64,000 nucleotides of DNA, taken from NCBI GenBank assembly GCA_029856155.1, contig JAHQWL010000052.1, forward strand, positions 96,001-160,000, written 5' to 3'. This document shows, piece after piece, positions 25,736-60,420 of this stretch; position 1 is the stretch's first letter, and each line of letters starts with the position of its first letter. The stretch comes from Promethearchaeia archaeon (lineage in GTDB: Archaea; Asgardarchaeota; Lokiarchaeia; Sigyniarchaeales; SOKP01). Both the position numbers and the translations under genes were made by a program. The notes under the pieces are model-generated. The model was not told the DNA's origin. It saw only the letters and a program-made list of their open reading frames with translations, and did not search any database.

Positions 25736-25966
25736 ATGGAGGTGTTTGTTATAGGTAAAAATGATGATGATGATGATATTGTTTATTGTAAAAATTGCCA
25801 AAAGGAAATACTCCAAAAAAACGCAATTTATGTAGGTGGAAAACCTTATTGTAAAAAATGTTATCGTGATGCTGAAGAGTATGAGATCATTGAAGATGCT
25901 GAAGAAGATGATGACGACGATGATGATGACGACGATGATGATGATTACGATGATGATGATGATTAA
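25736..25966 (+). CDS. Small zinc-finger (half-LIM-like) protein with a poly-Asp tail
   Basis: CKNC-x16-YCKKCY; acidic N-terminal patch and C-terminal D13-Y-D5. Confidence 0.75.
   Translation: MEVFVIGKNDDDDDIVYCKNCQKEILQKNAIYVGGKPYCKKCYRDAEEYEIIEDAEEDDDDDDDDDDDDDYDDDDD
25907..25963 (+). repeat. (GAY)n trinucleotide run encoding poly-Asp
   Basis: Mixed GAT/GAC codons interrupted by one TAC. Confidence 0.85.
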
Positions 25967-26502: not shown

Positions 26503-26913
26503 TTATTTTTCACAAAAACACCCTGAACTGTTTAAAATCTTTTCACCGCAAGGGCATTCTTCGGGATGGTCATATTTTTCACAGATTTTATTTATTGTTT
26601 CACATGAAAAAAGTAAGCTAAATTTTTCACTTTCATTGTGAGCTTTAGTTGGATGGAGTCCTAATTCATTATATAACAGAACTTCGAGAAGCCTGCTATG
26701 TCGGTTCAATTCTTTTGCTAATTCAATACCATTTTTAGTTAAATCTACTTCATAATATGGTTGATAATTGACAAAATTACGTTGTTTTAGTCTTTTAATA
26801 CAACTACCAAGAGTAGAATGTGGTAGGTTTAACTCTTTTTTTATTTCGCCAATTTTCATTGATTTCTGTGATTTAAATAAAAACTTTATAACAAGACAAT
26901 CTAAATCTATCAT
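26503..26913 (-). CDS. DtxR/MntR-family metal-dependent regulator
   Basis: N-terminal HTH; YQPYYEVDLTKNG; RHSRLLE; HPEECPCG. Confidence 0.88.
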   Translation of the reverse strand: MIDLDCLVIKFLFKSQKSMKIGEIKKELNLPHSTLGSCIKRLKQRNFVNYQPYYEVDLTKNGIELAKELNRHSRLLEVLLYNELGLHPTKAHNESEKFSLLFSCETINKICEKYDHPEECPCGEKILNSSGCFCEK

Positions 26914-26943
26914 TTTATAAACTCCTCCAGCATTATTGATTGA

Positions 26944-27702
26944 TTAATGTTCATGTCCTCCAACTATTAATATAAAGCCCATAATGATAATACCTAACAT
27001 TACTAAAATTAATTGTCTTATGATTTCTTTTGTACCTGTCTTTTCATGTAATTTTGGTGTTAAATCCGATAATGCTATGTAAATAAAACTAGCTGCTGAG
27101 ATTGCTAAAAATATTGGTGTAAGAAAGGCAAAAATACCAATAATATAATAGCTAATAATAGCAGCTGGTATTGTAGATAAGCTAGATATTAAATTATAGA
27201 TGAATGCTTTTTTTTTTAGCATTCCACCGTGAAGGAGTATGCCAAAATCGCCTATCTCCTGAGGTATCTCATGAATTATTATTGTAATACCGACTGCAAT
27301 ACCGATATTAAAATCTGTAATAAAGGCAGTTGCAATAAGAACTCCATCTGTAAAATTGTGAAAAGCATCTCCTACAAGAATTATAGATGCTGTAGCATTA
27401 CTATGAACTTCACAACTGTTATTTTGACAATTCCGCCAAATTAGAAATTTTTCTAAGAAAAAGAAAAATAGAATACCTCCTAATATAAAATACATGATTG
27501 AATGAGGGTCACCTGGTGAACTCTCGATCGCTTCAGGAATTAAACCTAAAAATGAAGCAGTAAGTAATGTTCCTGTCGCAAATGAAATTAAAGCAGAAAC
27601 GATTCTCTTTTGCATATTTTCTTTAAAAAGAATGAAGCCTGAAGCTGCTAGTATAGCCCCAACACTTCCAAAAATACTAAACAAAATAATCCAAATTAAC
27701 AT
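26944..27702 (-). CDS. ZIP-family divalent metal transporter
   Basis: FATGTLL, GDAFHNFTDG, HEIPQEIGDF, YIALSDL. Confidence 0.92.
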   Translation of the reverse strand: MLIWIILFSIFGSVGAILAASGFILFKENMQKRIVSALISFATGTLLTASFLGLIPEAIESSPGDPHSIMYFILGGILFFFFLEKFLIWRNCQNNSCEVHSNATASIILVGDAFHNFTDGVLIATAFITDFNIGIAVGITIIIHEIPQEIGDFGILLHGGMLKKKAFIYNLISSLSTIPAAIISYYIIGIFAFLTPIFLAISAASFIYIALSDLTPKLHEKTGTKEIIRQLILVMLGIIIMGFILIVGGHEH

Positions 27703-27722
27703 TATTTATCAATTCAGTTTCG

Positions 27723-28478
27723 TTATAATATGGATTTTAACATAAATATTAATATCATTGTAATTATTCCAGCAAACAGTAAAATCAGTTGTCTTAAGCT
27801 ATGTTTTAATCCTAATTTTTGATGCAATTCAGGTGTTAAATCTGATAAGGCAATATAAAGAAAACTTGCTGCTGAAATTGCTAGAACATAGGGAATTGCC
27901 AAGGAAATTAAATCTAAAAGAAAATACCCTATTATTGCAGCAGGTATGGTTGCAACTCCTGAAAGAAGATTATATAAAAAAGCTTTTTTTTTTGAATAAT
28001 TCTTATCAATGAGTATTGCTAAATCGCCAATCTCTTGGGGAATTTCATGAGCTATAACAGAAAGACTAATAGCAATTCCAAAAGTAAAATTAATTAAAAA
28101 AGATGCGGCAATTACAATACCATCTACAAAATTATGAAATGCATCACCTATAAGAATAACTGGACCTGCAGCTTCACCCGTTACAACACACTCAGCGTCG
28201 TGACAATGACGCCAAATGACCAATTTTTCAAGAATAAAAAAAAATATAAGACCTCCTAAAAAGTATGTCATTACAATTTGTATTGCATCTCCCGCTTTCG
28301 ATATAGCTGTAGGAATCATTCCCAATGATGCTGCGGCTAGTAACGTACCCGTAGCATAAGCAACCAAACTGGAAACTAGTGATTTTTGAATATTTTTAGT
28401 TAAATTAAGAAAAATAAAAGCTAAAACTATAGCTCCAATACTCCCTAAAACACTAAACAATATAATCCATAGAAGAAT
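27723..28478 (-). CDS. ZIP-family divalent metal transporter (tandem paralog; ATT start)
   Basis: HNFVDG and HEIPQE motifs. Extending to ATT at 28476-28478 gives ILLWIILFS, which aligns with MLIWIILFS of the paralog; TAA lies directly before the ATT. Confidence 0.9.
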   Translation of the reverse strand: MLLWIILFSVLGSIGAIVLAFIFLNLTKNIQKSLVSSLVAYATGTLLAAASLGMIPTAISKAGDAIQIVMTYFLGGLIFFFILEKLVIWRHCHDAECVVTGEAAGPVILIGDAFHNFVDGIVIAASFLINFTFGIAISLSVIAHEIPQEIGDLAILIDKNYSKKKAFLYNLLSGVATIPAAIIGYFLLDLISLAIPYVLAISAASFLYIALSDLTPELHQKLGLKHSLRQLILLFAGIITMILIFMLKSIL

Positions 28479-28555: not shown

Positions 28556-28691
28556 TTTTTACATAAAATCATATAAATTAATCTCTATTAAATTTTCTCA
28601 CAAAAGAACAAAGGTTGTCAAAAGGACTTAATAATAAAAAAACCCAATTAATTAATAAATCAAAATTAATATTTGTCTTAGAGGTTATTTC

Positions 28692-30131
28692 ATTATTAAA
28701 AAATCACTAACTCTAACTTGTATAGAATGCAAAAAAAAGTATGAATTTACCTCTATTCAACATAAATGTCCTGAATGTAAAGGACTATTATGGTTTGAAG
28801 TTAATTTAGAAAGATTTAGACAACAATTCTCTGAAATTGAAGCTATAAATAAATTTTGGGATTACAAATTTGCACTTCCTCAAGTACAGGATGATTTTAT
28901 TGTTTCATTAGGGGAAGGGGGTAGTCCTTGTAAAAATTCAAAAAAATTTGGAGAAAAATTGGGATTAAAGTTCTTATTTTTTAAAGATGAAACTCAAAAT
29001 CCAACTAATTCTTTTAAAGATCGTGCGGCAGCATTATTAGTTTCTCATGCGCGTAGTTGGGATTATAAAAAAATTATCTGTGCTTCAAATGGTAATCAAG
29101 GTGCCTCATTAGCAGCATATGCTTCTGTAGAAGGAATGAGTTGTTTGAATATCATCCCAAGAATAATTGATGTAGGAAAAAAAGCTCAAATGATCGCGTA
29201 TAACTCCGAATTAGAAGTAATTGGAGAGACTGTTGATGATGCTATTGAAGAACTATTAATACGAAAAAATATTACAGATTTCTATCAAGGTTCTCCTGAT
29301 TTGAATCCACTTACCCTTGAAGCCCAGAAAACCATCGCTTATGAAATAATTAAACAGGTTGAAGAACCAAATTGGATTTTAATCCCCATGGGAAGTGGAG
29401 AATTATTAGTAAGTCTATGGAAAGGATTTCATGAGCTTCTAGAGGCTAATGTCATAAAGAGGCTTCCAAAATTAGTTGGTGTCCAATCAGAAGCCTCATC
29501 TCCCATTGTGGATGAATTCTTTAAAGATAAGGGGAGTATTCTGAAAAATCAAGAAATTCAAAATTCTATAGCCCTAGGAGTTTTAGTAAGAAATCCTATA
29601 TATAAAGATTTAGCTATTAAATGTATTAGGGAAAGTGAAGGCACTGTAATGTCAATTCTGGAGGAAAATATATTAAATTCAATTGATAAACTAGTAAGAT
29701 ATGAAGGAATCTTTGCAGAACCCGCATCAGCTTTAACTATAGCTGCAGTTCAATCATTGCAAAATAAAAATGTGTTTGATGATAATGAAAAAATTGTATG
29801 TCTTATCACTGGTAGTGGACTAAAAGCACCTTACATTTTAGAAGCGTTATCATCTCAAACAAAAACGACAGGAAAAGGTTCAATTATTATAACAAAATTA
29901 AAAATATTATCTCAAATATCCCTATCTGGTGAAAAAGGGATTTATGGAAGTAAAATCCATGAAATAATAAGCCCTGGTAAAAAAATTTCTGGAATTTATC
30001 AGCACTTGAAAGATTTAGAATCAAAAGGTCTAATAATGCGAAAAAAAGAAGGAAAACATATATTGTATTTTATAACTGAAAATGGAAAAAAAGTTCTTGA
30101 TGCATTAGATGTCCTAATTACACTCCTTTAA
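28692..30131 (+). CDS. Threonine-synthase-fold PLP protein fused to a C-terminal winged helix (probable ATT start at 28692 or 28695)
   Basis: Upstream in-frame extension encodes a CIEC...CPEC Zn ribbon and SLGEGGSP; NPTNSFKDR PLP lysine; EGIFAEPASA; ITGSGLK; C-terminal wHTH (IYQHLKDLESKGLI...YFITENG); GAGGT at 28681. Confidence 0.88.
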   Translation: MIKKSLTLTCIECKKKYEFTSIQHKCPECKGLLWFEVNLERFRQQFSEIEAINKFWDYKFALPQVQDDFIVSLGEGGSPCKNSKKFGEKLGLKFLFFKDETQNPTNSFKDRAAALLVSHARSWDYKKIICASNGNQGASLAAYASVEGMSCLNIIPRIIDVGKKAQMIAYNSELEVIGETVDDAIEELLIRKNITDFYQGSPDLNPLTLEAQKTIAYEIIKQVEEPNWILIPMGSGELLVSLWKGFHELLEANVIKRLPKLVGVQSEASSPIVDEFFKDKGSILKNQEIQNSIALGVLVRNPIYKDLAIKCIRESEGTVMSILEENILNSIDKLVRYEGIFAEPASALTIAAVQSLQNKNVFDDNEKIVCLITGSGLKAPYILEALSSQTKTTGKGSIIITKLKILSQISLSGEKGIYGSKIHEIISPGKKISGIYQHLKDLESKGLIMRKKEGKHILYFITENGKKVLDALDVLITLL

Positions 30132-30769
30132 GATTCATATAATTCAACTTCTTTTCTACCTTCTACTAGAAATACTTTATCAAAAACTTGAGGAAAACTT
30201 TGAATAATATTCTTTCTAACAACAGATATTATCAGTAAGGATATTAAACCTGATATACCAAATTGTATTATTCCATTTAAAATTACCTCATATAAAGCAC
30301 TAACAAATCCCCAAAGTATAATTTCATAAATAAAATAACCAAGTACCATGAATAAACCTCCCAATACAACAGCTACTATATCACGATAATTAAATTTAAT
30401 GTTATTCTGCTTAGGATTTGAAATTAATCCAATTATAAATCCTTCTAATCCTTTAATTATTAAAGTTGCTGGGGCATAAATAGCATAGCCTAAGAAAATG
30501 TCTGCTAAAGCAGAACCTATACCTCCTGCTATACCCCCTATAAAAGGACCAAATAGTAAACCTGCAAACATTACTCCAGCATCTCCAATATTAATAAATC
30601 CTTGGGTTGCTGGAATTGGTATCGAAATTACCATGGTCAATACACAAATTAAAGCTGCAAATATACCTATAATTGAAAGACATAACACATTATTAGGTAA
30701 AAGATAACCCATTAAACTTTTAGGTTTAAAAACCTTTTTTTCCTTCATTATTTCACTTTCTTCTTTCAT
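30128..30769 (-). CDS. ECF transporter S component (PdxU2/HmpT-like)
   Basis: IFAALICV (AxxxA-type helix 1), GFINIGDA, GGIGSALADIFLGY, TLIIKGLEG. Confidence 0.85.
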   Translation of the reverse strand: MKEESEIMKEKKVFKPKSLMGYLLPNNVLCLSIIGIFAALICVLTMVISIPIPATQGFINIGDAGVMFAGLLFGPFIGGIAGGIGSALADIFLGYAIYAPATLIIKGLEGFIIGLISNPKQNNIKFNYRDIVAVVLGGLFMVLGYFIYEIILWGFVSALYEVILNGIIQFGISGLISLLIISVVRKNIIQSFPQVFDKVFLVEGRKEVELYES

Positions 30770-30788
30770 AATTTTTCTACTTTTAAAT

Positions 30789-30824
30789 ATATAAGTTTGG
30801 ACTTATATAAGTTTAAACTTATAT
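30789..30824. promoter_or_regulatory. Two overlapping 20-bp palindromic operator sites
   Basis: ATATAAGTTTGGACTTATAT (30789-30808) and perfect ATATAAGTTTAAACTTATAT (30805-30824), 20 bp upstream of the S-component start. Confidence 0.7.
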
Positions 30825-30933
30825 TTAATCTATGATTTTTTTTTATTTAAATCTTTATGTTCAGATTAAAATTAGAAAAAAAGGATCCTATCAATCTAGT
30901 TTATTTTGGAAAATTGTTAAAAAAAAATATAAG

Positions 30934-51013: not shown

Positions 51014-51829
51014 TTAGACGGGAATATCCCGTTTGTTGAAGATTATTATTGAAACTAGTGCTAATATAATAGTATAAGATGAGAGAAACACTATTTTTAT
51101 AGGCAGTGCATCCCAATTACTATTTACAAGGAGATTTGACATGTCAGAATAGTAAAAAATACTGATATATTTAATACTTTCCATGCTCTCGCCAAAACTC
51201 TGCCAGAATTGGCCAACTGCATAGAAAAAGATAATTAAACCTAAACTTAAAACAAGAGATTTCTTAGTATCCATGAATGTCGAGAAGAAAAATCCAGTGG
51301 TAACAATTCCTAAATTCAATAAGATCATTACAAGAAAAGCTGTCAAAAATTCTGCCCATGGAACTTCATTGGGAACAATATTTGGCATAATAAAAATACC
51401 CAGAATTACTGCCAACATTACTCCGAACAGGACTATCACGGCACCAATAATATGATATAAATATTTCCCAAGCGAAAATTCCCATCGTTTAATAGGTTTA
51501 GACAATATTAGATCGATTGTTTTATTATCAATCTCTCTTGGAATGTCTTGGGAAGCCTTTAGTATAAAATAAATTCCAAAAAAGAATAAAGACATCGAAA
51601 AAAGATATATATTCAATAGACCTCCAATTGTGCTTAAAGAATAAAATTCACCTATCATTTGCCTTATTGCTTCAGGATAAGATTCTAATAAAGCTTCGAA
51701 GTCTGCAAAAAATACAGGATCAAAAATTGAAACAAACCACATGTAAAATAGTCCCATTAATGCTGTATAGAGGATAATACCTTTCTTACTTGACGTAATT
51801 TCTTTCTGCATAATTTTAACCGCTTTCAT
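51014..51829 (-). CDS. ABC-2-type exporter permease
   Basis: Six TM segments; REIDNKTIDLILSKPIKR; C-terminal FNKRDI. Confidence 0.88.
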   Translation of the reverse strand: MKAVKIMQKEITSSKKGIILYTALMGLFYMWFVSIFDPVFFADFEALLESYPEAIRQMIGEFYSLSTIGGLLNIYLFSMSLFFFGIYFILKASQDIPREIDNKTIDLILSKPIKRWEFSLGKYLYHIIGAVIVLFGVMLAVILGIFIMPNIVPNEVPWAEFLTAFLVMILLNLGIVTTGFFFSTFMDTKKSLVLSLGLIIFFYAVGQFWQSFGESMESIKYISIFYYSDMSNLLVNSNWDALPIKIVFLSSYTIILALVSIIIFNKRDIPV

Positions 51830-52782
51830 GCAGCTTCACCTCCTTCTGTAGTATTATCTTTGTAATATTGCATAAAAATATTCTCTAAAGTGGAATGTGT
51901 AATTGAAATATCTCTTATAGGGGCTCCATCCCAGTCTTTCTCACTAATTTCACGTAAAATTTTTCGAGTCTGTTCTGGAGGGACTAGAAATTGAAGCTCG
52001 ACATTGTAGGATTGTTTCACAATAGCTTCTGGAACCTCAGATGCTAAAAAGTTCGTAAATACTTCTAAACCTTTCGGTGTTTCAAAGATTAATTCAATAT
52101 TTTTCAAATTCTTTGCTTTAAGATCTCTAACATCTGAAATTTCCGCAATTTTTCCTTTTTTAATAATTGCCACTCTATCACAGAATTTTTCTATTTCTGG
52201 AAGAACATGAGAGCATACAAAGACAGTACAATTTGATTCTTTCTGACGTTCAGATACAATTCGATAAAATTCACTCTGATTTAATGGGTCAAGTCCAGAA
52301 GTTGGCTCATCCATAATTAATAAATCGAACTTACCCATTAAAGCTACTAAAACTCCTGTTTTTTGTTTATTTCCTTTACTTAGAATGCCCATCTTTCGCT
52401 CCATTTCGATCTTAAGGCGGTCAGCGACCTCATCTACAAATCTCCAATCAATTTCGATTTTGTAAAGCTTTGCAAAATACCTAATTAATTGAGTAGCACT
52501 CATCTCCTTGTAAATTCCAAGCTCCCCAGGTAAATAACCAATTCGATTTCGTATTTCTACATCCTTTTTGGGATTAATTTTCTGTCCAAGAATAGTTATA
52601 TCACCTGCATCAACATTTAAAAACCCAAGTAAACACCGAATGGTCGTAGTTTTTCCTGCCCCATTTGGTCCAAGAAAACCAAATCGAGAACCTTCTGGAA
52701 CTTCAAAAGAAATACCATCAACTGCTTTGACTTTTCCCTTGTTATAATATTTTTTTAGATTTTTTACTTCGATCGCGTTCAT
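51826..52782 (-). CDS. ABC exporter ATP-binding subunit
   Basis: GPNGAGKTT, LSKGNKQK, DEPTSGLDP, SH; start moved to the ATG at 52782 (MNAIEVKNL). Confidence 0.93.
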   Translation of the reverse strand: MNAIEVKNLKKYYNKGKVKAVDGISFEVPEGSRFGFLGPNGAGKTTTIRCLLGFLNVDAGDITILGQKINPKKDVEIRNRIGYLPGELGIYKEMSATQLIRYFAKLYKIEIDWRFVDEVADRLKIEMERKMGILSKGNKQKTGVLVALMGKFDLLIMDEPTSGLDPLNQSEFYRIVSERQKESNCTVFVCSHVLPEIEKFCDRVAIIKKGKIAEISDVRDLKAKNLKNIELIFETPKGLEVFTNFLASEVPEAIVKQSYNVELQFLVPPEQTRKILREISEKDWDGAPIRDISITHSTLENIFMQYYKDNTTEGGEAA

Positions 52783-52866
52783 ATTTATCAACTTATAGAG
52801 TTTTTTATTTTTCATGAATAATAAAAAACCTAATAGAATAATATGAATCTGAATATATAAATGTTC

Positions 52867-52888
52867 TTCATTTTTCATGAAAGATGAA
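52867..52888. promoter_or_regulatory. Overlapping TTCA-N7-TGAA operator pair
   Basis: TTCATTTTTCATGAAAGATGAA in the divergent promoter; sites begin at 52867 and 52874. Confidence 0.65.
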
Positions 52889-52928
52889 AAATTATAAATA
52901 GTTGTTTACACATTAATAATATTAAGTA

Positions 52929-53453
52929 ATGATAGATAAGGAACTTTTGCCTAGAAATCATATATTCAAGGGAAAGATAAAAGAATTTGAGCAAATATTA
53001 ATTAAATTTGTATTAGATTCTGGAAGAGCAAAAAGTGTTGACCCTAATCTTCAATTAATTCTTGGATATATTGGATTACACAAAAAGTTGACTCAGAAAC
53101 AGTTAAAAGATTTAACAAAACTTTCTAGGGGTACGATTTCAAAAAAATTGAGGGATATATTGTCATTACGTATCATAAGAAAAGAAAGAATTCCAAAATC
53201 AAATGAATATTTGTATATAAATGCTCCTGAAGTCTACGGAGATACCGCTGATGCGACCCTAGAAGAATTCATAGAAATTAATGAATTTCTTAAAAAAAAA
53301 ATTATTGAGATTGAGGAAAATAAGGAAAAAAAAGGAGCGAAGTTTCTTTCCGAACGAATAAAAAGCTTAACAGAGACTTTTGAAACTGTTAAGAATATCT
53401 GGTCAGATATAGAATTTATATTTAAACAAAAAAATAAAGAAACTTTACAATGA
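52929..53453 (+). CDS. GbsR/MarR-like wHTH regulator (first half of a split pair)
   Basis: LTQKQLKDLTKLSRGTISKKL. Confidence 0.8.
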   Translation: MIDKELLPRNHIFKGKIKEFEQILIKFVLDSGRAKSVDPNLQLILGYIGLHKKLTQKQLKDLTKLSRGTISKKLRDILSLRIIRKERIPKSNEYLYINAPEVYGDTADATLEEFIEINEFLKKKIIEIEENKEKKGAKFLSERIKSLTETFETVKNIWSDIEFIFKQKNKETLQ

Positions 53454-53980
53454 ATATACAAGAAAGATTTGATCCTGAAATTAAAAAGATTGAGAATGAG
53501 ATAATTAAAAAATTATTAAATTATACTGTTTTTTCTGTTCGGGGTGAAATAACTTCAAAAATACTTTTCTATTTTATAACTCGAAAAGATTTAACTCAAT
53601 CTGAACTCCAAAACTTAACAGGTTTTTCTACAGGAAAAATTTCTCAAGAACTTAATAATTTTCTGGAGTTTGATTTAATAAAAATTTCTAAAAAATCAAA
53701 ACCGTGGATTTATTCAATGGAATCAGTAGTAGCAGAAACTTTTAGTAGAGCAATTAACCTTCTAAAATCAAATATCAAATGGGAGGCAAAATTCTTTGAA
53801 ATGAAGAAGGATTTGGAAGATAACAGAGAAAATCTTCAAAATTTAAATGGATATACTGAAGTAAAAGACTTTATTGAGGTAAATCTCATGAGATTTAAAG
53901 GATTTAAGGTTGTTATTAAACTTTGGGAAGAACTTAAAAATAAATATGAAAAAGAGGATAAAAAATTAAATCTAATTTAA
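53450..53980 (+). CDS. GbsR/MarR-like wHTH regulator (second half of a split pair)
   Basis: LTQSELQNLTGFSTGKISQEL; ATGA overlap with the previous gene. Confidence 0.8.
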   Translation: MNIQERFDPEIKKIENEIIKKLLNYTVFSVRGEITSKILFYFITRKDLTQSELQNLTGFSTGKISQELNNFLEFDLIKISKKSKPWIYSMESVVAETFSRAINLLKSNIKWEAKFFEMKKDLEDNRENLQNLNGYTEVKDFIEVNLMRFKGFKVVIKLWEELKNKYEKEDKKLNLI

Positions 53981-54046
53981 GCTTATAATGACTTATTTTC
54001 TCCTCACTTTAAAAAAAAAGATAAAAAAAATTGGGTGAATGAAGAA

Positions 54047-55471
54047 TTAATTATTAGATATTGCTTTCATTAAGATTTGATTTGCCCTTTCTTTGATTTT
54101 CAGAATTTTTTCGGATGAGATTGATTCTTCCATGTGATTTAAAGTTATGCTTGCAGTTTCCCCATGTGTGACTACACCTAAGACTAACTCGGTGTAGGGA
54201 GAACACGAAGGCATCAAAATCAGATTCTTTAAGATTAAATCTCCATATTTTTCTGGAAACCCCGTTTTACCAAGATTAGTCATAATTTGGGCCATTGCGA
54301 ATCCCTTCGAAAGTTTTTTCTTGACCATTTTATTTACTATATTCTTTTTGTCCGAGATAAATGCTTGAATTTTATCATAGCTTTTTGAAGTTGGCGGTAT
54401 GAGGGGACCAAAAGCAGCAAAAATTTGAGCTTCCAATAACGTTGGGTTTAATGCAAAGGCATTTAGAGTGCCTACTAATGTTTTTTTTGTAAGTTCATTT
54501 GGTCCTACTTTTAAGTGAACTTTTTTAGCTATCTCCCAGAAATTATTTTTATCAGAATATTTGAATTTTAGTTCTATTCCACCTGCGAAAAAACCAAATT
54601 GTTCACCTGCAGGATTCTTGAGAAGATCTCTTAAATTCACAGCAAATGAAATATTCTGTAAATATTTTGGAGATTCAGAATTTAATTGATTTTGAGCTGT
54701 AGCAAAGGCAATCATTAATGCTGTGTTCACGGTTACCCCATTTTTACGACAAGCCATGATCAATGCATCTGTTTGTCCTTTGGAAAGTTCGTATAAGTGT
54801 GCTTTATAGGTATAATTCTTCCAAAAAACATCGTGTAGAGCATAGAAATCATCATAGTTAAAAAGCAATTCATTTTTTTCCCATTTCTTATTGATTGTCT
54901 TGCCAAAGATTCGCATTACTAAACTAGGTTTAATATCAGAAGGTATATTATCTTCGTTAACCAATGGAGCGGGGGACAGTAATTCAATCTTTTTCGTCGG
55001 ATCTGCTAAATATGTCATTATATCTCTTGCTAAGTATGCCAAGGACATACCATCACAGATCGTGTGTTGACAAAAGATAATTAAATCTGAAATTTCAGTT
55101 GAATGTAATAATAAGAACCTAATTAAGGGACCTTGCTCCATATCAAAGGGTATTTTATGTTGTTGAATTATTTCATCCCTCCATTGGTCATCGGAAATAC
55201 GCTTAATTGTTTTTAAGGGAATTTCCAAACTACCATTTGCTAAAAGATATAGTGCTTTACCATCGTGTTGTAAGTATGCATTGAGTATAGGATGCCGTTG
55301 TTGCATTTTTTTTATGACCTTTTTCATTTCATCAATGGAAACATTTCCTAAAATGGTTGCTATCATAGATATGTTTGAATTTGGTACTTTTGAGTGTATT
55401 CGTTCTCTTTGATTCAATTTTCTTTTAAAATATTGATTATTTAATTCTATTTGTTCTAAAATTTTCAACAC
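54047..55471 (-). CDS. Condensation-domain/alcohol acyltransferase (PapA5/Atf-like)
   Basis: RHPIL, PFDMEQGPLIR, HxxxDG (HTICDG), VNLR, TNLG. Confidence 0.85.
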   Translation of the reverse strand: MLKILEQIELNNQYFKRKLNQRERIHSKVPNSNISMIATILGNVSIDEMKKVIKKMQQRHPILNAYLQHDGKALYLLANGSLEIPLKTIKRISDDQWRDEIIQQHKIPFDMEQGPLIRFLLLHSTEISDLIIFCQHTICDGMSLAYLARDIMTYLADPTKKIELLSPAPLVNEDNIPSDIKPSLVMRIFGKTINKKWEKNELLFNYDDFYALHDVFWKNYTYKAHLYELSKGQTDALIMACRKNGVTVNTALMIAFATAQNQLNSESPKYLQNISFAVNLRDLLKNPAGEQFGFFAGGIELKFKYSDKNNFWEIAKKVHLKVGPNELTKKTLVGTLNAFALNPTLLEAQIFAAFGPLIPPTSKSYDKIQAFISDKKNIVNKMVKKKLSKGFAMAQIMTNLGKTGFPEKYGDLILKNLILMPSCSPYTELVLGVVTHGETASITLNHMEESISSEKILKIKERANQILMKAISNN

Positions 55472-55584
55472 CTTTAAATCTTCAAATCATGTGAATTTTC
55501 ATATTTATTGAAGGTTTCAATAATTGATAGAAAAATAACATATTTAAATGTTTTCAATCTTTATGAAGTTTCATAAAACTTAAA
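55464..55584. promoter_or_regulatory. Array of TTCA-N7-T(G/A)AA operators at 17-bp spacing
   Basis: Sites start at 55464, 55481, 55498 and at 55553, 55570. Confidence 0.7.
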
Positions 55585-55613
55585 TATTCAAATGATCTTA
55601 ATATGTTTAAGCA

Positions 55614-56720
55614 ATGTCTAAAAAATACGAGGATTTTATATATCCCGAAGAAGTTAGGAAATATGAAAAAGATTTACTTGATTTTATAGTAGAATCTGGT
55701 AAAAATAAAAGAAGATCTGATATAGAATCCCACATTTTGGGATATTTCCTGCTACATTCAAGTCTTACACAAAAAGAGATTCAGATATTATCAACAAAAT
55801 TTCGATCAAGGCGTATATCAAGCGGTTCAATATCAACTTTTTTAAACCAATATACTTCATATGAACCAAGGATAATTCTTAAACAGAAGGTACTTAAAAG
55901 TAAAAATAAGTTCAGATATCATATTGTTTCAGAGAATTATAAAGAATTATTTGCTGTAAGTAAAGAGGCGGGAGTAAATGTTTTATATGAAACAATTGGA
56001 AAAATAAAAGAAATAATAAGAGCTTTAGAAAAATTAAACCCTAATGAAAAGGAAATTAAGCTTTATAATATGATATTAGAAAGAACAAGAGAACTGCAAA
56101 GTTATCTTAAATATCACTTATCCTTATTTGATAATTTTATGGAAAGTGTGATAGGACAAAAGTATCCTATAAAAAAAGATATAAAAATCCAAAAAGCGGA
56201 TCCAAAAGTTAAAGCTGTTAAGAATCGAAATTTAAAAGCGATTGAACAAGAGCTAATTAATTTAATTTTAAATAATGAGCTTTTTATTATTGAAGAGATA
56301 AAATATCATCCAATTATAGCATACTTAATAACTCGTAAAAGTTTAACTCAATTAGAGTTAAATAAATTGACTGAACTATCAGCTGGTCTAATTTCTGAAG
56401 GACTAAATTATTTAAAAGAGCAAGGTTTTATTGAAATTGAAAAATTACCGGGGTTACGTCAAAAAAGCTATGTTTTAGAATCCATTGGTTATTTTAATTT
56501 TCTCAAATTTTATCAAAGATTTAAAAATATAGCAAACAATAGGTATAGATTGGCTCAAATTTTAGATGAATTAAAAAATAGAAAGGATGAATTAGGAGAA
56601 ATAAATGGTTATAATGTGATTAAAACCCGAGCGGAAGAGTTCTTAGAGCAATTCAAAGTAATAGATTTTGGAATTAAAATCTTTCAGAAGGCTTTAGAAG
56701 ATTTCAAAAAAGTTAATTAA
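55614..56720 (+). CDS. Tandem double GbsR-like wHTH regulator
   Basis: Two LTQ..L....S.G.IS HTH units in one chain. Confidence 0.8.
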   Translation: MSKKYEDFIYPEEVRKYEKDLLDFIVESGKNKRRSDIESHILGYFLLHSSLTQKEIQILSTKFRSRRISSGSISTFLNQYTSYEPRIILKQKVLKSKNKFRYHIVSENYKELFAVSKEAGVNVLYETIGKIKEIIRALEKLNPNEKEIKLYNMILERTRELQSYLKYHLSLFDNFMESVIGQKYPIKKDIKIQKADPKVKAVKNRNLKAIEQELINLILNNELFIIEEIKYHPIIAYLITRKSLTQLELNKLTELSAGLISEGLNYLKEQGFIEIEKLPGLRQKSYVLESIGYFNFLKFYQRFKNIANNRYRLAQILDELKNRKDELGEINGYNVIKTRAEEFLEQFKVIDFGIKIFQKALEDFKKVN

Positions 56721-56771
56721 TAAAAAGAACGAAAAAAAAATTATTAGTACTTAATCATAACATTGTAAGCT

Positions 56772-56966
56772 TTATTGTTGAGATTTGTTATTTCTATTTC
56801 CATAACAGACTGCATATTTGATAACTCCTGTTTGAGAATTAAAAATCCATTCAGTTTCACAATTAGTACAGATAAATTTACTACCCAATTTAGAAGTTAA
56901 ATTTTGTTTACATATAGGACAGGATTTTCTTTTTAAAAATAAATTAATTCTTAAGCAAAATATCAT
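56772..56966 (-). CDS. Small zinc-ribbon protein
   Basis: CPIC...CTNC. Confidence 0.55.
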   Translation of the reverse strand: MIFCLRINLFLKRKSCPICKQNLTSKLGSKFICTNCETEWIFNSQTGVIKYAVCYGNRNNKSQQ

Positions 56967-57043
56967 TTTCAGTCAACACTTCAAAATTTTTTTTTAATGG
57001 AATCCTCGTTTCTCAACTTTAAAAAAAATAAAAAAAAAAGATT

Positions 57044-57865
57044 TTATATTAGAATGTCTCTCTTATTGAAGATCAAAAGACTTGCTATAACTAAAGCAGC
57101 ATTAATCGAACCTAATACGATAATATCACGTGCAAAAAGCCCAACATCTCCATGAACCATATAATCTGTTGGATTGAAATAGTAAAAAACTGAAAAATAT
57201 CTTATTCCTTGTATAGCCTCGTCCATATATACATAGAACTCCCCAAGGAAGAACATTAAAAACAACACAAATATGCCCATTGCCATTGATTTTCTACCAT
57301 TAAGGAAAATCGTAGAAAATAACTTGGCAAACATTGCCAATGCTCCAAGATAGAGTATAACTATTATGTATGTTAACCATAGACGATCAAAGAAAAGACC
57401 TTCATTCCGGAATACTGAAGAAGAAGCCATCCCACCCATAGTGATGAGAAAAAACATGCCCAAGGCAGCTGCAATGAATAAATAAAGGAAAGTTATTTTG
57501 CTGCCTAAAAAATTAAATCGTGTTACTGGTTTGGAAAGGGAAAGATCAATTGTTTTTTCCTCAACTTCTCGAGTTAATAAATTGCTTGCCATATAAACAA
57601 TATAAATACCAGCATAGAGCCACATGAAGGAGAGAAGTTCTAAGGTCCAAAAACCATAAGGATTGGTAAATGCTTCCACATCCCCGAAAAATTCGATCAT
57701 CCCTTCTGGCCACAATGAGATGATATCCTCTATGGCTGAAAGATCCATACCTTCTATCATATACACAATAAAATAACTTAGTAATCCAATTACTCCCCCT
57801 AAGATTAGAAGAATATATTTTTTATCTAATAGGGATTCTTTTAGTGAAATAAAAAATCGATTCAT
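57044..57865 (-). CDS. ABC-2-type exporter permease (paralog)
   Basis: REVEEKTIDLSLSKPVTR; FNKRDI. Confidence 0.88.
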   Translation of the reverse strand: MNRFFISLKESLLDKKYILLILGGVIGLLSYFIVYMIEGMDLSAIEDIISLWPEGMIEFFGDVEAFTNPYGFWTLELLSFMWLYAGIYIVYMASNLLTREVEEKTIDLSLSKPVTRFNFLGSKITFLYLFIAAALGMFFLITMGGMASSSVFRNEGLFFDRLWLTYIIVILYLGALAMFAKLFSTIFLNGRKSMAMGIFVLFLMFFLGEFYVYMDEAIQGIRYFSVFYYFNPTDYMVHGDVGLFARDIIVLGSINAALVIASLLIFNKRDILI

Positions 57866-58831
57866 TTAAACTTCTACCTCCAATTTCTTTTTTGTATTTT
57901 CCATTGATTTCATTTGTATTGAAGATTTTTCATAGTATTTTAGAAAGATATCCTCAAGTGCAGGACTTGTAACATCAATATCTCTTACTTCAGATTGTGA
58001 AAGTAAATTTAGTATTTTGGATAATTCTTCACGTGAAATCATAAATGATGTTTTAGTTTCATTTAAAATAACAGAATCAACTATTCCAGTAGGAATCTTT
58101 TTTGAAAATTGTTGGAGAGCTTCTTTAGTTTTAAATTCAACTTTAATTTCTTTCATAGCCATATTTTTCAGTTGTTGAATAGTTGCAACTTCTACAATTG
58201 AACCATCTCTTATGATACCAACTCGATGTGCAACCCGTTCAACTTCCCCTAGTAAATGTGAACTTAAAAGAACTGTAGAACCCGTTTCTTTTTGTTGATC
58301 ATGAAGTATATTATAAAACTCAGCGGTAATTAAAGGATCTAATCCAGATGTAGGTTCATCAAGAATTAGTAGCTCAACCTCAGGCGCTAAAGCGAGTATT
58401 ATACCAATTTTCTGTTTATTACCCTTACTAAGTTCCTTTACTTTTCGATCAAGTTCCAGATTGAAAATTTCAGCTAATTCCTCAATTCGTCTCAAAGAGA
58501 TATGATTTTCATAGAGCCCTAAAAGATATTTGAGATTTCGTCGTGCTGTTTTATTTTGATATAAGCCTAATTCTCCAGGCAGATAAGCTGTACGCTGACG
58601 AATTTTAGTAGAATGATGGTGTATATCAAGATTGAAAATTTGTGCTCTGCCAGATGTTTTATAAATTAAATCAAGAAGAAGTCTACAAGTTGTTGTTTTT
58701 CCCGCTCCATTAGGACCAAGAAGACCAAATATTTCCTCGTTATATATTTCAAGATTTAGATTTTCAATACCTCGTGATTTGCCGTAAAATTTTGTTAAAT
58801 TTTGCGTTTGAATAATAGTTTCTTTAGACAT
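57866..58831 (-). CDS. ABC exporter ATP-binding subunit (paralog)
   Basis: GPNGAGKTT, LSKGNKQK, DEPTSGLDP, SSH. Confidence 0.93.
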   Translation of the reverse strand: MSKETIIQTQNLTKFYGKSRGIENLNLEIYNEEIFGLLGPNGAGKTTTCRLLLDLIYKTSGRAQIFNLDIHHHSTKIRQRTAYLPGELGLYQNKTARRNLKYLLGLYENHISLRRIEELAEIFNLELDRKVKELSKGNKQKIGIILALAPEVELLILDEPTSGLDPLITAEFYNILHDQQKETGSTVLLSSHLLGEVERVAHRVGIIRDGSIVEVATIQQLKNMAMKEIKVEFKTKEALQQFSKKIPTGIVDSVILNETKTSFMISREELSKILNLLSQSEVRDIDVTSPALEDIFLKYYEKSSIQMKSMENTKKKLEVEV

Positions 58832-59050
58832 TTATTTTCTACTCCGTAAATTTTACTTTTTTAATTTAGACTTACAGATTTTTTTTCTATTTATGCTTTA
58901 ATTAGACATACCTAAAGTTTAATTTTATGTATTCACTTTTTTCAAATTTTAGGAATGCTAATATTTGTAGAAAAAACAAACTATTTAAATGTTTCATAAA
59001 TTTCAAAATTTATTTTTAATATTTGGAATTTTAAAAAAAAATTAAAGGAA

Positions 59051-59199
59051 CTAAAATTTATTGAAAATATCAAAACGAGAATAATGTCCAATTATATCCA
59101 ATTTTTGGCACTCCTGGATTGTTAATAATAGATCTATGTCGGTATAAAGTATCCCTTCCTCATCTATTTACCATATAATATCGCTTTTGGAGATTTCAT
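59051..59199 (-). pseudogene. Nitrilase C-terminal remnant
   Basis: Minus strand 59167-59051 reads IDEEGILYTDIDLLLTIQECQKLDIIGHYSRFDIFNKF*, matching the nitrilase tail EEGILYADIDL...D..GHYSRPD; an in-frame stop lies directly upstream. Confidence 0.7.
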
Positions 59200-59209
59200 A
59201 TACTTTGAA
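59195..59209. promoter_or_regulatory. TTCA-N7-TGAA operator
   Basis: TTCATATACTTTGAA upstream of the third regulator. Confidence 0.55.
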
Positions 59210-59346
59210 ACTTGGAAAAGTTTAAATTATTGAGATTCTATATAATAATTAAGGATATAATATCTGAAAATAGTGTAATAGACCTTGTACTATTAATCTT
59301 TATCAATGAGATCTTAAAATTATATAAATAAAACAAAGAACATAAT

Positions 59347-60420
59347 ATGATTCGATCAATGACAGGAGAAGAGGAACCAAGTCATCTTTTCGATAAAAAA
59401 TTACGAGAATATGAAGACAAACTAGTGGAAATTCTATTAGAACTTGGACAAAGTAAGAGAACTAATCCTAAAATGTCAGCAATTGCCTGTTATTTGCTTA
59501 TTCATGGGATACTAACTCAAAAAGAATTAAAAGAATTAACAGGATTTTCAATGGGTACTATATCGACTTATCTATCAGTCATGCTTGGTACAGGAAACTT
59601 TCAAAAAATACGTATTCCTCATACACATGCATTTATGTATTCTTTTTCTGGTGAACTTGAAGCACTTACTACAAGAGCGGTTGAGTTCGCATTGAGTAGC
59701 TTAAGTTCATTAGAGATTTATTTAAAAAACAAAAAGAAAATTTTAACTAAATTAATTGAGAAGTCTATGAATGGTGCTAAACACCTTTCAGAAAGAATAG
59801 AAGAATTAATTGAAAGCTTTGAGAAATATAAAAAAATTTTTCCTTCTGATGGAGATTCAACTGAAGAAATTCAACACCAAACACCTACAAAACCTGTAAA
59901 ACGACCTAAAAATGAAAAAGAAGAAGCAACAGAAATTATATTTCATCCTGAAGTTTATTTAGTTGAAGATGATATCATAAATCAACTTATATCTTTACCA
60001 ATGTTCTCTATGCGTGATCCTATGTTTATTAGAATTTTCGGGTATTTCATGACAAGGAAGTATCTTACCCAAAATACATTAAAAGGAATTACAGGTTTAT
60101 CATCTGGGAAAATTTCTGAAGAAGTAAATCAACTTTTAGAGAATGAACTTATCTATATAGCTAGTACTTCAGAAAAAGGAAAAATAACTTATGGTGCTGA
60201 TTCATTTATATTACTTAGATTTACAAGAAATATAATCATTAGAATGAGAAAAAAGGTAAAAGACTTAGAAAATATGAAATTACTGTTAAAAAAGAATAAG
60301 TCTGATTTGGAATTTTTAGAGGGTTTTTCTCAGATTTATAAAATCTATGACTACACTTTAAGTGCAATATCAAAGTATAGTAAATATTTTGAGAAAATAG
60401 ATAAATTGATTGAATCGTAA
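59347..60420 (+). CDS. Tandem double GbsR-like wHTH regulator
   Basis: LTQKELKELTGFSMGTIS and LTQNTLKGITGLSSGKIS. Confidence 0.8.
   Translation: MIRSMTGEEEPSHLFDKKLREYEDKLVEILLELGQSKRTNPKMSAIACYLLIHGILTQKELKELTGFSMGTISTYLSVMLGTGNFQKIRIPHTHAFMYSFSGELEALTTRAVEFALSSLSSLEIYLKNKKKILTKLIEKSMNGAKHLSERIEELIESFEKYKKIFPSDGDSTEEIQHQTPTKPVKRPKNEKEEATEIIFHPEVYLVEDDIINQLISLPMFSMRDPMFIRIFGYFMTRKYLTQNTLKGITGLSSGKISEEVNQLLENELIYIASTSEKGKITYGADSFILLRFTRNIIIRMRKKVKDLENMKLLLKKNKSDLEFLEGFSQIYKIYDYTLSAISKYSKYFEKIDKLIES

Follow-up and report, generated by a model that had tools for sequence, protein, structure and literature searches.

The DNA analysed here, referred to below as the window, is a stretch of 64,000 nucleotides from a Promethearchaeia genome (Asgard, Lokiarchaeia; 4.1 Mb, 30% G+C, 97% complete). 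The locus of interest consists of two convergent genes whose stop codons overlap at 30128-30131, one encoding a protein with a threonine synthase (ThrC) fold and a C-terminal winged helix-turn-helix (wHTH), the other an ECF S-component with two overlapping 20-bp palindromes at its promoter (Table 1). An initial annotation had described this arrangement, and the convergence with a PF07155 S-component as well as both palindromes were recovered. The open frame of the ThrC-wHTH protein (28659-30131, plus strand) has no ATG, GTG or TTG ahead of the zinc ribbon. The feature had been placed at 28692, which is in the correct frame but is probably not the start: codon 28692 varies among relatives, unlike codon 28695, which is AUN in 30/30 relatives (ATT in 23, ATG in three, ATA in three and ATC in one). 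Since a GAGG-type element also lies ahead of it, the second ATT, at 28695, is the likely start. Residue numbers of the regulator follow P0001, whose start lies one codon before this ATT. Divergent from the regulator gene, positions 26503-28478 hold two tandem ZIP-family transporter genes and then a gene for a DtxR/MntR-type regulator, an arrangement kept in close relatives; the second ZIP transporter has a probable ATT start at 28476-28478, aligned with the ATG of its tandem paralogue.

Table 1. Features at the locus, in window coordinates.
Feature	Position	Strand	Remarks
Shine-Dalgarno-like GAGGT	28681..28685	+	9 nt ahead of the probable start; GAGG or AAGG there in 27/30 relatives
ThrC-fold + PadR-like wHTH regulator gene	28695..30131	+	478 aa from the probable ATT start; best NCBIfam match PRK05638, residues 8-472
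N-terminal zinc ribbon (C10, C13, C26, C29)	28719..28778	+	all four Cys invariant in 30 orthologues
Fold-type II PLP (PALP/ThrC) domain, predicted B6 sensor	28902..29813	+	PF00291, E 8e-61
Schiff-base lysine K109 codon	29016..29018	+	kept in the Lokiarchaeia family of the window and one other subgroup; replaced in most orthologues
PadR-like winged helix with conserved YQH recognition helix	29877..30128	+	PadR match in 11/11 orthologue tails
ECF S-component gene, HmpT/PdxU2-like, predicted B6-vitamer uptake, proposed regulated gene	30128..30769	-	PF07155, E 1e-37
Proximal operator palindrome (putative)	30789..30808		19 nt ahead of the S-component ATG; conserved in relatives
Distal operator palindrome (putative), perfect	30805..30824		16 nt from the proximal one; mostly 16-18 nt apart in relatives
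Putative TATA box TTTAAATA of the S-component gene	30844..30851	-	same or similar element at the same distance in many same-genus loci

The PALP domain of the regulator covers residues 71-374, and the best Foldseek matches of the structure model (pLDDT 86.7) are threonine synthases. The C-terminal wHTH claimed by the initial annotation is of the PadR-like type: the last ~85 residues of the window protein alone give a weak PadR match (E 4e-4), while all 11 orthologue tails match PF03551 (PadR), and a profile of these tails retrieves solved PadR proteins with an E value of 2e-10. Within the recognition helix, Y436, Q437 and H438 are invariant among 30 Asgard orthologues. PRK05638 is the sole model spanning residues 8-472 of the window protein, which scores 326.9 bits, below the curated cut-off of 421. 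The window protein and the Thermococcaceae members have the same architecture, both fall inside a 100-supported subclade of the wHTH-bearing group, and they have a common operator core.

A central question is whether this protein is an enzyme. The motifs SFKDR, ASNGNQ, SPDLNPLTLEA and GSGEL are present in frame as originally read. Alignment with 6CGQ, 2ZSJ and 2D1F gives ASNGNQ for ASTGNT and NPLTLEA for NPxRxEG, with the arginine and threonines of the substrate motifs replaced. That the protein departs from threonine synthase at every substrate-phosphate motif was, however, overstated, as K163, N205-P206 and E210 are retained. Loop positions of the substrate motifs deviate also in many ThrC-like proteins without a winged helix, so that little can be concluded from the ASNGNQ and NPLTLEA changes by themselves. 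Among family representatives taken at 50% identity, one of 58 with and 54 of 55 without the wHTH retain the Schiff-base lysine; the emphasis of the initial annotation on a retained lysine is thus correct for the window copy but does not extend to the family, in which the residue is replaced in 57/58 representatives. By contrast, R111, G134, N135, K163, G234, G236, E343 and T373 persist in the wHTH-bearing representatives. Most of these residues line the cofactor pocket in fold-type II enzymes; substrate-site residues vary and cofactor-site residues persist. With the lysine replaced so widely, most members cannot catalyse, and B6 sensing cannot generally rest on a Schiff base; the loss of the lysine together with the persisting pocket residues marks the family as made up mostly of pseudoenzymes whose pocket is intact.

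The window's own lineage calls for separate consideration, since K109 is conserved in all aligned members of its family (and in one metagenome subgroup). A bifunctional "trigger enzyme" that catalyses threonine synthesis or another PLP-dependent elimination in this lineage while also regulating, like RbkR, would account for this conservation and for the presence of K109, K163, N135, E343 and T373 in the window copy. We nonetheless consider it unlikely, because the substrate motifs have lost their arginine and threonines, because a canonical thrC resides elsewhere in the source genome, and because the lysine-bearing Lokiarchaeia clade falls within the arginine-bearing orthologues and a tree that groups it with canonical ThrC is rejected (p-AU 0.032), as fits a regained lysine. 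Regain in the window's lineage appears to be the simplest reading; a tree with a single origin of the two lysine-bearing groups is not rejected (p-AU 0.28). The canonical thrC is of the E. coli type and adjoins homoserine dehydrogenase on contig C73, and in view of this copy we rejected the window protein as a housekeeping ThrC. The threonine locus there (C73:3416-7046) comprises an ACT-like gene, homoserine dehydrogenase, thrC and a ThrH-like gene, and was possibly acquired from bacteria.

The palindromes have the core AGTT-NN-AACT, in the window as two copies of the form TAAGTT-NN-AACTTA. By chance, 0.01 such 20-bp palindromes are expected per window, and 0/100 shuffles contained two. The genome scan suggested alongside the initial annotation returned the two window palindromes as the sole matches within one mismatch in the whole genome. 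Chance and an assembly repeat were rejected as explanations on the strength of the shuffles and of conservation in relatives. Matrix scans of the source genome detected no credible site beyond these two, and specifically no operator at the regulator's own promoter, the ECF module, the ThiD-like kinase, the AIR-synthase-like gene or the threonine locus. Autoregulation is possible where the regulator gene is divergent from its target; it is unsupported in the source genome. A TATA box at TTTAAATA would put the transcription start at the distal operator.

We next consider the distribution of fusion gene, S-component and palindrome. The fusion was found in 76 of the 151 genomes of the class and the S-component in 130. 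The exact 18-base palindrome pattern occurs in 46 of the 151, in almost all cases immediately upstream of the S-component and at 0.6-2.2 kb from the fusion; it stays with the S-component despite an inserted gene or changed orientation. Among loci with both genes, 48/52 score above 10, the positive scores in the window's family being partly circular because the matrix was trained on them. The motif disappears where the fusion gene is lost, for 33/35 family genomes with the S-component but no fusion are without the site (matrix score <5); two sister genomes without the fusion, G059 and G120, retain a degenerate form of it. For 10 of the 35 fusion-negative genomes, a search of the whole genome found no winged-helix part. 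Across the S-component tree the fusion label changes nine times, and at least four of these changes are forced by strong branches. Three class-level relatives have both genes and no site recognised by the matrix.

The S-component has HmpT/PdxU2 as its sole PDB match (4HZU chain S, E 6e-16), and its Pfam family and its closest solved relative thus both place it with PdxU2/HmpT. HmpT binds pyridoxamine (PMC4860826). The HmpT pocket residues Y120, N140 and Q143 are identical in the window protein, HmpT E41 is conservatively replaced by D, and HmpT H84 and Q87 are changed to K106 and E109. At least 90% of the 17 archaeal orthologues aligned have the K106/E109 pair, and the vitamer of the archaeal S-component may differ from that of HmpT. 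On contig C1 the source genome carries an ECF A/A'/T-like module and on contig C102 a ThiD/PdxK-family kinase; pdxS was not found in this 97% complete assembly. We infer that the substrate is a B6 vitamer, and the arrangement in the source genome looks like that of a B6 auxotroph controlling salvage by feedback. In 33 metagenome loci (L079-L155, e.g. L091:6023-7057), a gene of the PurM/ThiL/HypE fold (AIR-synthase-like) lies near, mostly directly behind, the S-component gene; it scores below every NCBIfam cut-off and is a candidate non-orthologous B6-vitamer kinase. A 36% identical homologue is unlinked in the source genome (C59:26532-27581).

Comparison with other archaea provides the link to B6. 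The gene-neighbourhood comparison that had been suggested shows linkage of the fusion with either the S-component or pdxST in Asgard as well as other archaea. Three Asgard genomes, each from a different family, have the fusion next to pdxS/pdxT, divergent from or co-oriented with pdxS-pdxT; these pdxS/pdxT genes pass NCBIfam cut-offs, and a palindrome of the same form lies between the divergent pairs. In G193 the site precedes an S-pdxS-pdxT operon, of which the S-component is the first gene. When promoters were scored with a test matrix trained on S-component promoters only, 7/9 directly promoted Asgard pdxS genes scored >8 in genomes with the fusion versus 1/19 in genomes without it, absence being judged among the matches listed.

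The Thermococcaceae, which we take to be the family of the genome behind L161 (accession CP015193), are the clearest case and separate regulator and target. Here the fusion is PRK05638 proper, has the lysine replaced by arginine and is encoded far from pdxST. The palindrome is present in 22/22 pdxS promoters of genomes with the fusion (matrix score 5.7-20.3), counting one whose fusion copy has an internal stop, and lies directly 3' of BRE/TATA; none of the four genomes without the fusion has a pdxS site (score <=3.6), and all four keep BRE/TATA. The four negatives form one clade and hence count as one loss event. A genome-wide pattern search located the same palindrome before an S-component 45-51% identical to the window's at 12 Thermococcaceae loci, and several genomes carry both the S-component site and the pdxS site. 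The motif is thus found before orthologous S-components and pdxS even where the fusion gene is far away. One Thermococcaceae regulator gene (G318:C1:1996258-1997567) has an internal stop with both operators kept, which may be a recent loss or a sequencing error. In L243-L256 the operator-bearing S-component gene lies between a PLP-dependent aminotransferase gene (PRK05769) and deoC; in some genomes of the family the aminotransferase is divergent from the S-component and could share its operator.

Beyond these groups, a variant palindrome with the same AGTT-NN-AACT core precedes the S-component in 47/55 metagenome loci with Bathyarchaeia-like proteins. In Thermoproteota-like loci the regulator gene adjoins full ECF operons, and three loci with such an adjacent operon have weak sites by matrix. 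Motif and recognition helix are both conserved across phyla. The initial annotation had proposed a transcription factor for B6 uptake, and linkage, motif and co-loss support that proposal, except that the regulon also covers B6 synthesis.

These distributions bear on whether the palindrome is bound by the fusion protein at all. In the window's family gene and target are neighbours, and one deletion could remove several elements, as would be expected if another factor bound the site and the fusion gene merely travelled along. However, the operator lies on the far side of the retained S-component gene and cannot go in the same deletion as the fusion, the gene is unlinked in Thermococcaceae, and motif and recognition helix are retained together across phyla, so that we regard binding by another factor as extremely unlikely. 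The same data speak to the transported vitamin. PF07155 is broad, HmpT was first assigned to hydroxymethylpyrimidine and two pocket residues differ; the S-component might on these grounds carry hydroxymethylpyrimidine or another vitamin, with the regulator no longer controlling B6 uptake in the source genome. We hold this to be very unlikely given the operator common to S-component and pdxST in the same Thermococcaceae genomes, the S-pdxS-pdxT operon of G193, and the complementary occurrence within the window's family, where genus g2 has pdxST, with fusion, S-component and site all not found, and most other genera have the reverse, an S-component with pdxST not found.

A second issue is the ligand. 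The ThrC ancestry of the regulator would also suit a sensor of an amino acid, phosphohomoserine or a PLP-amino-acid adduct rather than of B6 itself, and the ligand of bacterial MocR factors is often an amino acid, recognised through bound PLP. Moreover, in about seven metagenome loci (including L081, L101, L118, L128, L132 and L135) a canonical thrC, often with homoserine dehydrogenase (hom), is divergent from the regulator gene, an arrangement that is possibly a trace of the duplication that created the regulator. Yet the variant palindrome is absent from these neighbouring thrC/hom promoters, as the operator is from the source-genome threonine locus; the targets found are pdxST and the S-component only; and it is the substrate site that varies and the cofactor site that persists. 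Amino-acid sensing is therefore quite unlikely in our estimate, and a B6 compound is the preferred ligand.

A third issue is the sign of control. An activator acting at low B6, as bacterial PdxR does and as is inferred for RbkR, would be favoured if the TATA element were TTATATA at the proximal end of the operators, since the distal site would then lie upstream of it; RbkR sites upstream of promoters likewise suggest activation (PMC5397151). Against this, the Thermococcaceae site stands directly 3' of BRE/TATA, and genomes without gene and site keep promoter and targets, as expected for the loss of a repressor, which makes activation hardly likely. The operator position, behind TATA in Thermococcaceae and behind TTTAAATA in the window, suggests repression, and the pocket and the targets point to B6 as the co-repressor: for genes that supply B6, repression would be expected of the ligand-bound form.

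We conclude that the gene named threonine synthase very probably acts as a switch turning off B6 uptake and synthesis genes in many archaea. With high confidence, drawn from comparative sequence evidence, we propose that it encodes a homodimeric, B6-responsive repressor of B6 supply genes, made of a ThrC fold and a PadR-like wHTH, that binds the palindrome at their promoters. In this mechanism the homodimer would contact the AGTT-NN-AACT-core palindrome directly. With ample B6, the old cofactor pocket would be occupied by PLP or a related vitamer phosphate and the dimer would repress; with little B6, the supply genes would be expressed. The sole target in the source genome would be the HmpT/PdxU2-like S-component, working with the ECF A/A'/T-like module, and targets in other archaea would include pdxST. 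Modelling supports a homodimer, although the model may echo solved ThrC dimers: the dimer complex model reaches 0.54 versus 0.00 for the best control, a mark reached by 20/30 solved pairs and 1/23 single chains, and runs agree in at least 59% of contacts with a pLDDT of at least 83, the contacts involving the ThrC core as well as the C-terminal helices. A palindromic site suits a dimer, and a pair of such sites spaced 16-18 nt apart would accommodate two.

How does this family relate to known systems? Bacterial PdxR/MocR factors likewise join a PLP-enzyme fold to a winged helix and control regulons of pdxST plus a pdxU-type transporter, and MocR factors are reported to be absent from Archaea (PMC5320631). 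Their domains differ from the window family's, with a fold-type I aminotransferase domain behind an N-terminal GntR helix as opposed to a fold-type II ThrC domain ahead of a C-terminal PadR-like helix; the window protein lacks the GntR helix, and its sensor is of the PALP fold. The control of pdxST and B6 transport is common to both, by comparative evidence in our case, in which the operator at pdxS and S-component tracks the gene. The two families are convergent, not homologous. Passages of a 2023 survey of PLP pathways name only PdxR-type regulators (PMC9997740).

A closer parallel in kind is RbkR, which combines an enzyme-derived sensor with a winged helix, palindromic and lineage-variable operators, and a synthesis and uptake regulon for one vitamin (PMC5397151). 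RbkR is an active kinase and probably an activator, unlike the window family with its C-terminal helix and its mostly lysine-less members. The archaeal B1 regulator ThiR also has an enzyme-derived sensor with a winged helix, palindromic variable operators and a one-vitamin synthesis and uptake regulon. RbkR and ThiR serve vitamins B2 and B1 and have other sensor folds. The window family has the traits of this kind, namely an enzyme-derived ligand domain with a wHTH and a conserved operator at the synthesis and uptake genes of one vitamin, and it is highly likely to be a real regulator family of the RbkR/ThiR kind, without a description found in the literature. Our full-text search, which took in few subscription journals, found neither a description of the family as a regulator nor a dedicated archaeal B6 regulator.

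With the solved threonine synthases (B. subtilis 6CGQ/6NMX, T. thermophilus 1UIM, A. aeolicus 2ZSJ) the family has in common fold, dimer interface and cofactor-pocket residues at ~30-35% identity, and it differs in the extra winged helix, the altered substrate motifs and the absence of the lysine in most members; the window copy itself has K109 and lacks the ASTGNT and NPxRxEG motifs. Since 13 Thermococcaceae proteins, from the group scoring highest on PRK05638, read SFRDR and have no Schiff-base lysine, the name "threonine synthase" looks like a mis-annotation. We know of no other transcription factor on a fold-type II PLP scaffold. Considered as a whole (Asgard, Bathyarchaeia, Thermococcales, Thermoproteota), the family is likely a B6 regulator of Archaea in two chemistries, one lysine-less and non-covalent, the other with an apparently regained lysine and maybe reading PLP through a Schiff base.

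Riboflavin and thiamine already have dedicated archaeal regulators, and the present system supplies a candidate archaeal regulator for B6 together with its operator and regulon. It would correct the curated PRK05638 name, which may inflate threonine-pathway reconstructions in archaeal genomes, and it would place a widespread archaeal S-component in B6 uptake on the basis of the operator shared. It would further mean that a PLP-enzyme fold has been turned into a DNA-binding sensor twice independently, with natural lysine-bearing and lysine-less versions that allow covalent and non-covalent cofactor sensing to be compared. The system is testable in cultivable Thermococcales.

Several minor observations concern the regulator gene and the remainder of the window. 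In G116 (L042:2544-4952) a regulator without the zinc ribbon is fused in one 802-aa frame to unrelated upstream sequence, which may be a deletion fusion or an assembly artefact. In several lineages (L058, L060-L064, L150, L158) the regulator gene directly adjoins GINS-like and MCM replication genes, with no operator seen there, probably an ancestral synteny. Within the window, positions 25736-25966 hold a small ORF that encodes two CxxC motifs and ends in a long run of aspartates, of which L005 has a longer form, and positions 51014-60420 hold two ABC-2-type exporter sets, among whose genes several helix-turn-helix regulator genes resembling one another are interspersed, some of them domain-doubled.
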